Position numbers and translations under genes: made by a program. Shown here piece by piece: positions 18,194-18,672 of a stretch of DNA of 64,000 bases. Position 1 is the first letter of the stretch, and each line of letters begins with the position of its first letter. The DNA is taken from positions 11,371 through 75,370 of the IMG/VR virus record IMGVR_UViG_3300047472_000102, one strand, 5' to 3'. The DNA is from a virus. A model generated the notes under the pieces. That model was not told the origin of the DNA. It saw only the letters and a list, made by a program, of their open reading frames with translations, and did no database searches.

Positions 18194-18672
18194 TGGCCCT
18201 TAGTAAGGATAATCCTGAAAAGAATAAGCAAGCTTCTTGTAGTCGTAGAGCAGGCTAGTATCCCTTTCTCTCCTGTGAGGGTACACTCCCTGATAAGGCT
18301 AGATAGCTCTACGAAGAATTCCTGATAGCCAGACACTATCGGGTTTAGTGCTGAAGGTACGCGTAAAACCGTGCTGCGAAAGAGCAGGAAGCTTGCTGTG
18401 GGGAGTTTACCCCTGTGTACTGCCTTGAGATACGGAGCAAGAGCCTCTGCCTTCAGCCAACTAATTCGCATGGTGAGAAATGGGTGATAACCATTCAAAA
18501 CCTTGCAATCACCTGCTTGGTGTAATCAGCCGTCTGTCTCTCTATGTCCCAGATACGTACCTCACAGACATAGTGGTTCAGGAATGCCACACATCCTAGA
18601 GTGCTTGAGCCGAGCAGTATTAGTCCAATCAGACAGGCCAAGGGGAGGGTAGAGTTGCAAATCTCCCTCCCT
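18194..18672 (+). ncRNA. Large (~480 nt) multi-stem pseudoknotted ncRNA of unknown class
   Basis: 13-bp stem 18227-39/18385-97, 9-bp 18243-51/18306-14, 8-bp 18321-28/18336-43, crossing 10-bp 18350-59/18448-57, several smaller hairpins and a terminal GGGAGGG/CCCTCCC; no credible CDS. Confidence 0.7.

Follow-up and report, generated by a model that had tools for sequence, protein, structure and literature searches.

A probable chain of separate RNA modules, two of them conserved in structure, behind tRNA-Asn in the tRNA island of an N4-like phage

What occupies the roughly 480 nucleotides (nt) that follow the tRNA-Asn gene in a phage known from a metagenomic record only? The stretch, positions 18194-18672, lies in the plus-strand tRNA island of the window analyzed here, 64,000 nt of DNA that correspond to positions 11,371-75,370 (C1:11371-75370) of a 75,370-bp IMG/VR virus record; it is located just beyond the switch from minus- to plus-strand genes and, in agreement with the first-pass annotation, adjoins tRNA-Asn, starting 20 nt past its end. 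That annotation interpreted the stretch as one large pseudoknotted RNA of a new class. Comparison with related phages suggests instead that positions 18174-18683 are probably a non-coding plus-strand trailer of an early tRNA operon, organized as a chain of separate modules that would yield small stable RNAs. Given that these modules have separate relatives and histories, the stretch is not one RNA. Two of them, the core cassette and module A, match no catalogued RNA family and, judging from the helices that each keeps across three genera, are under selection for structure. Homology, covariation and the absence of a coding signal, described below, are direct results of this analysis. The layout of the locus is as follows.

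18098-18173, plus strand: live tRNA-Asn(GUU), detected by ARAGORN and by the Rfam tRNA model (70.3 bits)
18174-18260, plus strand: lineage-specific spacer
18227-18240, plus strand: anti-core strand, a 14-nt complement (2 G-U) of 18384-97, where both Hd and Hb of the core have their 5' strands
18261-18335, plus strand: tRNA-Gln pseudogene, 75 nt, assigned from ungapped similarity to tRNA-Gln and syntenic position
18321-18343, plus strand: hairpin on the 3' end of the dead tRNA (pair probability 0.97; gap in the alignment)
18343-18459, plus strand: core cassette, ~115 nt, delineated by homology to OLIVR1 and RHph_N38 and by covariation
18460-18672, plus strand: module A, ~210 nt, delineated by homology to RHph_X2_28B, RHph_X3_15 and ort11 and by covariation
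18673-18683, plus strand: conserved tail, ATTAATCTCA compared with TATTCTACATCTCA in X2_28B and X3_15 (alignment A5)

The relatives that define the two modules were found by sensitive local alignment and profile searches of the early regions of named rhizobial phages. Window positions 18323-18483 are homologous to positions 198-366 of the early locus of Agrobacterium phage OLIVR1 (L092), with a local alignment score of 44 against 24.4 ± 3.4 for shuffled sequences (0 of 300 shuffles), and a profile built from these two sequences identified a third copy of the core in Rhizobium phage RHph_N38 (L215, 826-923; nhmmer E-value 7e-4). The core starts 9 nt after tRNA-Gln in OLIVR1 and ends 8 nt before tRNA-Pro in N38. 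All three copies contain the box GCGUAAAA (18361-68 in the window) and a GAAG linker (GGAAG in the window), and AGCCUCUG is common to the cores of the window phage and N38. Four helices make up the structure.

18350-59/18448-57, plus strand: closing helix Ha, present in all three copies with differing sequences
18380-82 and 18384-87/18420-26, plus strand: helix Hd, with a conserved bulged A
18392-97/18436-41, plus strand: helix Hb, which crosses Hd
18400-03/18410-13, plus strand: nested 4-bp hairpin c, kept in all three copies

Because Hd and Hb cross, the core has a pseudoknot. In the alignment of the three copies (A7), 17 pairs were assessed; 94% of their cells are paired and 10 pairs display compensatory double changes, a result matched by 0 of 500 shuffles; slid controls reached 37-53% paired, with 0-3 compensated. 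The two unpaired Hb cells in A7 reflect a one-column MAFFT shift in N38, and RNAalifold recovered Hd and hairpin c independently. The strands of Ha are GCUGAAGGUA/UGCCUUCAGC in the window phage, UGAUGAA/UUCAUCA in OLIVR1 and CUUUGCAGG/CCUGCAAAG in N38, and the covariance model R2 scores the three copies at 101, 94 and 88 bits. The pairing from which a long pseudoknot had initially been proposed, 18350-59/18448-57 (10 bp, 1 G-U), is the same strand pair as Ha; it is thus supported, with counterparts in two other phages, and a pseudoknot is indeed present in the stretch, but the one backed by covariation is formed by 18380-87/18420-26 crossing 18392-97/18436-41.

As defined here, the core family includes the window phage, OLIVR1-3 and RHph_N38, which amount to three distinct sequences sharing the GCGUAAAA box, the GAAG linker, the Hd-Hb pseudoknot, the nested 4-bp hairpin, the closing helix and an adjoining tRNA. 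Models R1 and R2 detected no further copy in ~1 Mb of related DNA, a pattern scan of IMG/VR returned OLIVR1 only, and a scan of 185,579 prokaryote genomes (one per species) returned only 7 chance matches. We also considered the core as a tRNA-like molecule, given that UGAAGGU/GCCUUCA followed by G and CCA recalls an acceptor end; this resemblance is noted as an observation only, as a T arm is missing, OLIVR1 lacks the CCA and the tRNA model gives no match.

Module A has a different set of relatives. In RHph_X2_28B, the homolog of window positions 18452-18687 is the 248-nt tract immediately after tRNA-Gln, and RHph_X3_15 carries the same tract minus precisely the 75-nt tRNA-Gln. In X3_15 (L214, ~2490-2500), this tRNA gene is gone with both flanks kept compared with its close relative X2_28B (L212, 3472-3545), which looks like a clean tRNA gene deletion. 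In Sinorhizobium phage ort11, module A (L094, 1985-2212) is located within a ~450-nt unannotated tract before tRNA-Arg. The nhmmer E-values for these three phages, obtained in a small database, are 5e-6 to 7e-6. The module consists of the following parts.

18466-70/18504-08, plus strand: helix M1, with one mismatch in the window phage
18479-83/18491-95, plus strand: hairpin M2, with the conserved loop GUGAUAA (RGUGAURA in the family)
~18524-18600, plus strand: variable middle, not conserved
18604-11 (CUUGAGCC)/18636-42 (GGCCAAG), plus strand: helix M4 (alignment A5), with GGYCAAG as the partner strand in the family
18643-53/18662-71, plus strand: terminal hairpin M5, with the loop GUUGCAAA and the palindrome UUGCAA in all four phages

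For the four aligned sequences (A5), RNAalifold predicted 33 pairs, which are 90% paired over the alignment, 12 of them being compensatory (0 of 500 shuffles; slid controls, 37-57%). In M4, G-U alternates with G-C and A-U among the relatives, whereas helix M3 is poorly kept in the window phage. The M5 hairpin alone scores 46 against ort11, compared with a shuffle maximum of 43. The module A family comprises, as defined here, the window phage, RHph_X2_28B, RHph_X3_15 and ort11 (four sequences), which possess the M2 hairpin with its RGUGAURA loop, M4 and the terminal hairpin with the UUGCAA loop, downstream of the tRNA-Gln position. Pattern scans of IMG/VR for M5 and M4 yielded only ort11 and coding look-alikes. 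In ort11, the ~240 nt between the module A hairpin and tRNA-Arg (L094, 2213-2450) fold very strongly, the tract 1990-2455 having a z-score of -5.6.

Upstream of the core, a 75-nt segment, 18261-18335, is a decayed tRNA-Gln gene at the position where OLIVR1 has a live tRNA-Gln. Aligned without gaps to the working tRNA-Gln of the window phage (21377-21451), it is identical at 36 of 75 positions, a value reached by 4 of 3000 shuffles with offsets included; identity to the OLIVR1 tRNA-Gln is 34 of 75 (21 of 2000 shuffles), and other tRNAs give 26-32 identities. Its 3' end, GATAGCCAGACA (18324-35), matches GAGAGCCAGCCA of OLIVR1, although it terminates in GCCAGACA in place of CCA, and its acceptor stem is broken, with 4 of 7 positions pairing. 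It is followed by a 7-nt insertion and then by a trailer that begins with GTTTAG, as after the OLIVR1 tRNA-Gln. The insertion, CTATCGG (18336-42), is missing from OLIVR1 and is an inverted copy of the adjoining CCTGATAG, creating the hairpin at 18321-43. The segment was recognized as a tRNA neither by the Rfam tRNA model at E<=10 nor by ARAGORN with or without introns. A search for further tRNA relics in 18336-18700 found none above background.

The remaining upstream part is the spacer, for which nhmmer detected no homolog in related loci. It contains CCTGAAAAGA (18214-23) and TGGCCCTTAGT (18194-204); the latter is identical at 10 of 11 positions to the 5' end of the OLIVR1 tRNA-Gln, so that more tRNA debris is possible in the spacer. 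The anti-core strand at its 3' side pairs with an ensemble probability of 0.58, compared with 0.34-0.40 for the competing Hd and Hb, in the single-sequence ensemble. This stem is not found in the aligned relatives OLIVR1 and N38. Both pseudoknot helices can lose their 5' strands to the anti-core strand, so that a bistable or partly disabled core is predicted for the window phage. The possibility that the repeats of this stem, taken as 13 bp, bound an element resembling a miniature inverted-repeat transposable element was discarded, since its right arm belongs to the ancestral core, as the alignment with OLIVR1 and N38 shows.

A small stem-closed element after tRNA-Leu (21109-21175, plus strand) contains CCTGAAAAGA, ACTGCC and TTGAGATACGGAG in the same order as the large stretch, and is followed by a tRNA-like sequence (21174-21257, plus strand) weakly similar to the tRNA-Pro regions of relatives (nhmmer E-values 0.002-0.1). 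From this colinear 10-mer, 6-mer and 13-mer, the element is plausibly, albeit unproven, a partial duplication of the stretch. Local alignment of the two was not significant (10 of 200 shuffles), and models R1 and R2 gave no match to the element.

All the individual pairings listed in the first-pass annotation were present in the sequence at the coordinates given. Besides Ha, these included 18227-40/18384-97 (14 bp with 2 G-U, described there as a 13-bp stem, 18227-39/18385-97, closing a domain), 18243-51/18306-14 (9 bp), 18321-28/18336-43 (8 bp, 1 G-U), the hairpins at 18400-13, 18479-95 and 18643-71, and TGGCC (18194-98), which can pair with GGCCA (18636-40). Conservation sorts these pairings differently. 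The three hairpins just named are backed by comparison, whereas those proposed at 18542-73 and 18573-90 fall in the non-conserved middle of module A and lack such backing, and the one at 18602-16 is disfavored because it overlaps the conserved helix M4. The domain-closing stem proved to be specific to this lineage and is in competition with helices that are conserved in the core, and closure of the whole by TGGCC/GGCCA is contradicted by the use of GGCCA in M4, which is conserved in relatives. The preference for the plus strand is borne out by G-U pairs in the plus-strand helices, by the alternation of G-U with other pairs in M4 and by the better folding of this strand compared with the minus strand.

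Database and model searches uncovered no family to which the stretch could be assigned. With Rfam 15, cmscan of the whole window at gathering scores reported five tRNAs and nothing else, with no match to the ROOL, GOLLD, OLE, raiA, RNase P, group I/II intron or tmRNA models, and cmscan of 17500-21800 at E<=10 with lax filters also returned only tRNAs. Thus, the absence of RNase P, tmRNA and group I or II signatures claimed originally holds in the Rfam and ARAGORN checks, and the hit to a known Rfam family that would have removed novelty did not materialize. No open reading frame (ORF) in the stretch has a PHROG match. Lowering the threshold of ARAGORN -m did not reveal a tmRNA, the two-piece form included, and none of the three plus-strand frames encodes a peptide resembling a tmRNA tag, so a tmRNA-like message RNA was rejected. 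A group I intron or intron-bearing tRNA was likewise rejected, given the lack of a covariance model hit and the empty ARAGORN output with introns at default thresholds. Finally, tblastn detected no protein remnants of the early ORFs of relatives, so that a pseudogene of OLIVR1 gp02 or of another early ORF was discarded.

The hairpin richness of the stretch is not unusual in this genome. The plus strand of the stretch folds at -163.4 kcal/mol (z-score -3.0; minus strand, -1.5), compared with a mean z-score of -2.6 (standard deviation 1.8) for 507-nt sense-strand coding windows, 42% of which are at -3 or below; for 250-nt windows over the first 30 kb, the mean is approximately -1.9 on either strand, and parts of the PolA gene and of a tail gene reach -4.3 and -4.1, respectively. 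The stretch has 9 stems of at least 8 bp. The mean over the genome is 6.4 ± 2.9, and 24% of windows reach the number seen here; the 13-bp stem alone stands out, its length being in the top ~3% of genome windows. Because both the z-score and the stem count are ordinary for the genome, hairpin richness alone is no evidence of a special RNA. More generally, coding regions of this phage fold far better than dinucleotide shuffles, many 507-nt windows having z-scores of -4 to -6; strongly folding windows include 50001-50507 (plus), 12001-12507 (minus) and 25001-25250 (plus). For genome scans, this calls for caution, as hairpin density and shuffle z-scores do not separate non-coding RNA from genes in this phage.

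ORF 14636-16237 encodes the large terminase (TerL), which shares 75% identity with TerL of Agrobacterium phage OLIVR1 and 64-68% with its counterparts in Ochrobactrum phage ZX86, several Rhizobium RHph/RHEph phages and Sinorhizobium phage ort11. The window further encodes an SU10-type portal protein, a family-A DNA polymerase (PolA) and a primase, with a very large minus-strand ORF at its end. The TerL identities, together with the portal and PolA, place the phage, on sequence grounds, among N4-like podoviruses (Schitoviridae) of Rhizobiaceae-type hosts; the hosts of its nearest named relatives are Agrobacterium and Sinorhizobium/Rhizobium. The tRNA genes of the island identified by ARAGORN start at 17913 (Pro), 18098 (Asn), 19918 (Arg), 21024 (Leu) and 21377 (Gln), and tRNA sets differ among all relatives. 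In OLIVR1, the closest of these phages, tRNA-Asn is followed one base later by tRNA-Gln and then by 270 non-coding bases; two segments of the same locus, L092:3071-3137 and 2001-2071, match the Rfam tRNA model (52 and 29 bits) and are unannotated as tRNA in the GenBank record.

Broader searches returned nothing comparable: blastn of the stretch against GenBank phages and nhmmer against 80 IMG/VR and 76 metagenome TerL-anchored loci detected no homolog, anchoring on the downstream 135-amino-acid gene identified no relatives, and pattern scans for the shared 13-mer and a 'mini' motif gave chance coding matches only. In all the rhizobial N4-like phages examined, tRNA-Gln is followed by an extended tract without annotation (250-690 nt), measuring 248 nt in X2_28B, 270 nt in OLIVR1 and 470-690 nt in I1_6, N38, RHEph16, Y38 and Y2_6; in the homologous tracts of OLIVR1, ort11, X2_28B, X3_15, I1_6 and RHEph16, Rfam recognizes tRNAs only. 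In five Rhizobium phages (RHph_I1_6, N38, RHEph16, Y38 and Y2_6), a different, highly conserved tract of ~480 nt directly after tRNA-Gln, which we denote family B, has a mean identity of 80% and contains long invariant runs; 119 pairs are predicted, 15 of them compensatory, and Rfam gives no match. Compared with the window stretch, family B is the better candidate for a large RNA of phages. Its loci, aligned in A6, are as follows.

L213:2755-3250: family B
L215:1675-2188: family B
L216:1555-2039: family B
L217:1653-2123: family B
L218:1445-1929: family B

In the family B phages, the first tRNA is also immediately preceded by an element closed by a stem, CUUUGUGAG...CUCACAAAG or similar, with the recurring hairpin GGGGUCAGUUCCC (L213:1850-1948, L216:980-1080, L217:1020-1122, L218:800-899 and, in N38, L215:812-947). 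The interior of the N38 element is the core cassette, so the closing stem seems to frame interchangeable inserts.

Taken together, these observations are best accommodated by the modular trailer, for which we propose the following route. The trailer would be transcribed together with tRNA-Pro and tRNA-Asn as one early precursor, from which the cassettes would be cut by tRNA-processing nucleases, with RNase P acting on the downstream tRNA, followed by RNase E/Z-type 3' trimming. In OLIVR1 and N38, the 8-9 nt between cassette and tRNA correspond to the spacing within tRNA arrays, which makes release by these nucleases probable. The terminal hairpin M5 would form the 3' end of the unit, and the released cassettes may persist as compact nuclease-resistant small RNAs, by analogy with RNAC and RNAD of phage T4; in the window phage only, sequestration of the Hd and Hb 5' strands by the anti-core strand could render the core bistable or partly disabled. 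Our best guess, held with low confidence, is that the RNAs act in trans by binding a host or phage protein.

Several considerations weigh against this proposal. Transcription, processing and stability of the trailer are all inferred from the DNA, the families are tiny (three core and four module A sequences), and the shuffle controls ignore relatedness. Approximately 45% of the stretch (18174-18260 and ~18510-18600, the latter with no conserved helices) has no homolog and could be neutral, and the fold energy of the stretch is indistinguishable from that of coding sequence. The terminator role of M5 is doubtful, because a proper U-tract is lacking: the stem at 18643-71 is present, but its tail is UAUUAAUCU, and a terminator scan that did list 18759-81 (tail ACTTTTTC) did not list it. 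Furthermore, compensatory changes preserve DNA hairpins as well as RNA hairpins, and N4-type virion RNA polymerases use DNA-hairpin promoters (PMC9163698).

Some of these points are equally the strengths of competing accounts. The stretch could be neutral debris of a fast-turnover tRNA island, in which decaying tRNAs and filler accumulate and inverted repeats arise as template-switch (quasi-palindrome) by-products. Such an origin is consistent with the tRNA-Gln pseudogene, the variable tRNA sets, the birth of hairpin 18321-43 from a 7-nt inverted-copy insertion, the lineage-specific 14-nt and 9-bp stems, which are near-perfect inverted copies of nearby sequence, the unremarkable fold z-score and stem count, and the share of sequence that has no homolog. 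We nonetheless regard it as unlikely, because helices have been kept through 10 compensatory changes in the core and 12 in module A, across three genera each, because the core and module A were retained after two independent losses of the adjoining tRNA-Gln, by decay in the window phage and by deletion in X3_15, and because the core recurs beside a different tRNA, tRNA-Pro, in N38. The opposite extreme, a single ~480-nt pseudoknotted ribozyme, scaffold or sponge of a new class closed by TGGCC/GGCCA, has in its favor the ORF-free, Rfam-negative character of the stretch, a pairing probability of 0.90 for UGGCC/GGCCA in the single-sequence ensemble, and the precedent of ROOL and GOLLD, which are large phage RNAs near tRNA islands (10.1101/2024.12.08.627333). 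It appears very improbable: the whole unit occurs in no relative, OLIVR1, N38, X2_28B and ort11 each having one module only; GGCCA belongs to the conserved M4, with CUUGAGCC as its partner; the domain-closing stem is confined to this lineage and competes with conserved helices; a dead tRNA lies inside; and fold stability is at the genome background, no better than in phage genes.

The conserved hairpins might alternatively be cis-acting signals that serve the early genes downstream as leader, attenuator or terminator, or else DNA-hairpin promoters of the injected virion RNA polymerase. The distance from the end of the terminal hairpin to the AGGAG ribosome-binding site of the following gene is 16 nt in X2_28B and X3_15, an AT-rich, promoter-like tract comes after the hairpin in the window phage and ort11, and the capacity of 18384-97 to pair with either 18227-40 or the core strands is a switch layout. 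Yet the downstream neighbor of module A differs in each phage, being an ORF, a separate terminator unit or a tRNA-Arg at a distance of 250 nt, whereas three of its four copies are at the tRNA-Gln position, and the core is located between RNA genes rather than upstream of an ORF. The hairpin promoters of N4 itself have stems of 5-7 bp. N4-like phages use hairpin promoters, described with loops of 3-4 nt and, in LUZ7, stems of at least 6 bp (PMC9163698); the stem of 10-11 bp with an 8-nt loop here is unlike these short-stem hairpins, and we consider the cis-acting explanation distinctly doubtful. That the stretch encodes small proteins, for example on the plus strand at 18188-18325, 18415-18525 or 18480-18599 or on the minus strand at 18136-18498, is in line with its several open frames of 36-120 codons and with N4-like early regions being full of 30-80-codon genes, but seems extremely improbable. 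None of these frames has family matches, ribosome-binding sites are poor or absent, and the longest frames overlap tRNA-Asn. Moreover, frame-breaking indels separate the stretch from OLIVR1, N38 and X2_28B, the A5 and core alignments include indels whose length is not divisible by 3, and conserved bases occupy different codon positions, so that the codon conservation which would have marked an overlapping ORF as the real gene was not observed.

The modular trailer thus belongs with the structured non-tRNA RNAs embedded in phage tRNA operons, which are a known kind. T4 RNAC and RNAD (species 1 and 2 stable RNAs) are matured from a tRNA precursor by host RNases. They are non-tRNA RNAs encoded with the phage tRNA cluster and 'of yet unknown functions' (PMC9697503). 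The resemblance lies in this setting and in the processing route, which is the one proposed here for the core and module A, and it links phages of unrelated types, a T4-like myovirus and an N4-like podovirus; furthermore, RNAC and RNAD are classed as late in T4, whereas the window locus is at the early genome end. In phages and prophages, ROOL (RF03087) and GOLLD are structured, pseudoknotted ncRNAs that often lie next to tRNA islands and have no known function (10.1101/2024.12.08.627333). The window stretch is likewise structured, pseudoknotted and beside a phage tRNA island, but does not match their Rfam models even at E<=10, and whereas each of those RNAs has one conserved fold of ~580 to >800 nt and assembles into multimeric cages, conservation in the window stretch is limited to two separable modules of ~115 and ~210 nt. 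One conserved fold over the whole stretch was not found, the modules being carried separately in relatives, with no homolog for 18174-18260 and 18524-18600. As for phage tRNA turnover, 18261-18335 resembles other tRNA pseudogenes in that it agrees with tRNA-Gln in length and position and is ~47% identical to it without gaps, with a working copy 3 kb away; unlike in such cases, only these 75 nt are tRNA-derived, the core and module A having no significant tRNA similarity.

Other features were observed around the island. The first gene of the minus-strand block that adjoins it, a 100-amino-acid ORF (17123-17425, minus strand), contains an Acb2/Tad1 hairpin domain (Pfam PF24729, E-value 4e-16) and likely encodes an anti-CBASS/anti-Thoeris nucleotide sponge. 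A box of ~20 nt, TAGATAGGGATAAATGGGG (17573-17594), is identical in the window phage and OLIVR1 (L092:28-50), where it lies 10 nt upstream of tRNA-Asn; a partial copy, GGTTAAATGGGGG, is found at 18066-18081, 17 nt upstream of the window tRNA-Asn, making the box a candidate signal, promoter or leader, for the tRNA operon. In intron mode, ARAGORN reported a tRNA-Ser(act)-like gene with a 13-nt insert at 18984-19089 (plus strand), which overlaps the end of ORF 18804-18998 and is not reported by the Rfam tRNA model.

The locus adds two small, uncatalogued, covariation-supported modules to the unexplained RNAs of phage tRNA islands. These modules behave as portable cassettes, found beside different tRNAs and outliving the adjoining tRNA. 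In a more far-reaching scenario, which we deem quite unlikely, the core and module A would be functional trans-acting RNAs made via tRNA processing in the first minutes of infection, maybe titrating a host RNA-binding factor or defense nuclease as decoys or sponges, with dimerization through UUGCAA and a two-state switch operated by the anti-core strand, and would constitute, together with the family B RNA of Demetervirinae, a syntenic 'post-tRNA-Gln' RNA class. Because OLIVR1, N38, X2_28B and ort11 are cultured phages, the function of the modules is open to bench study.

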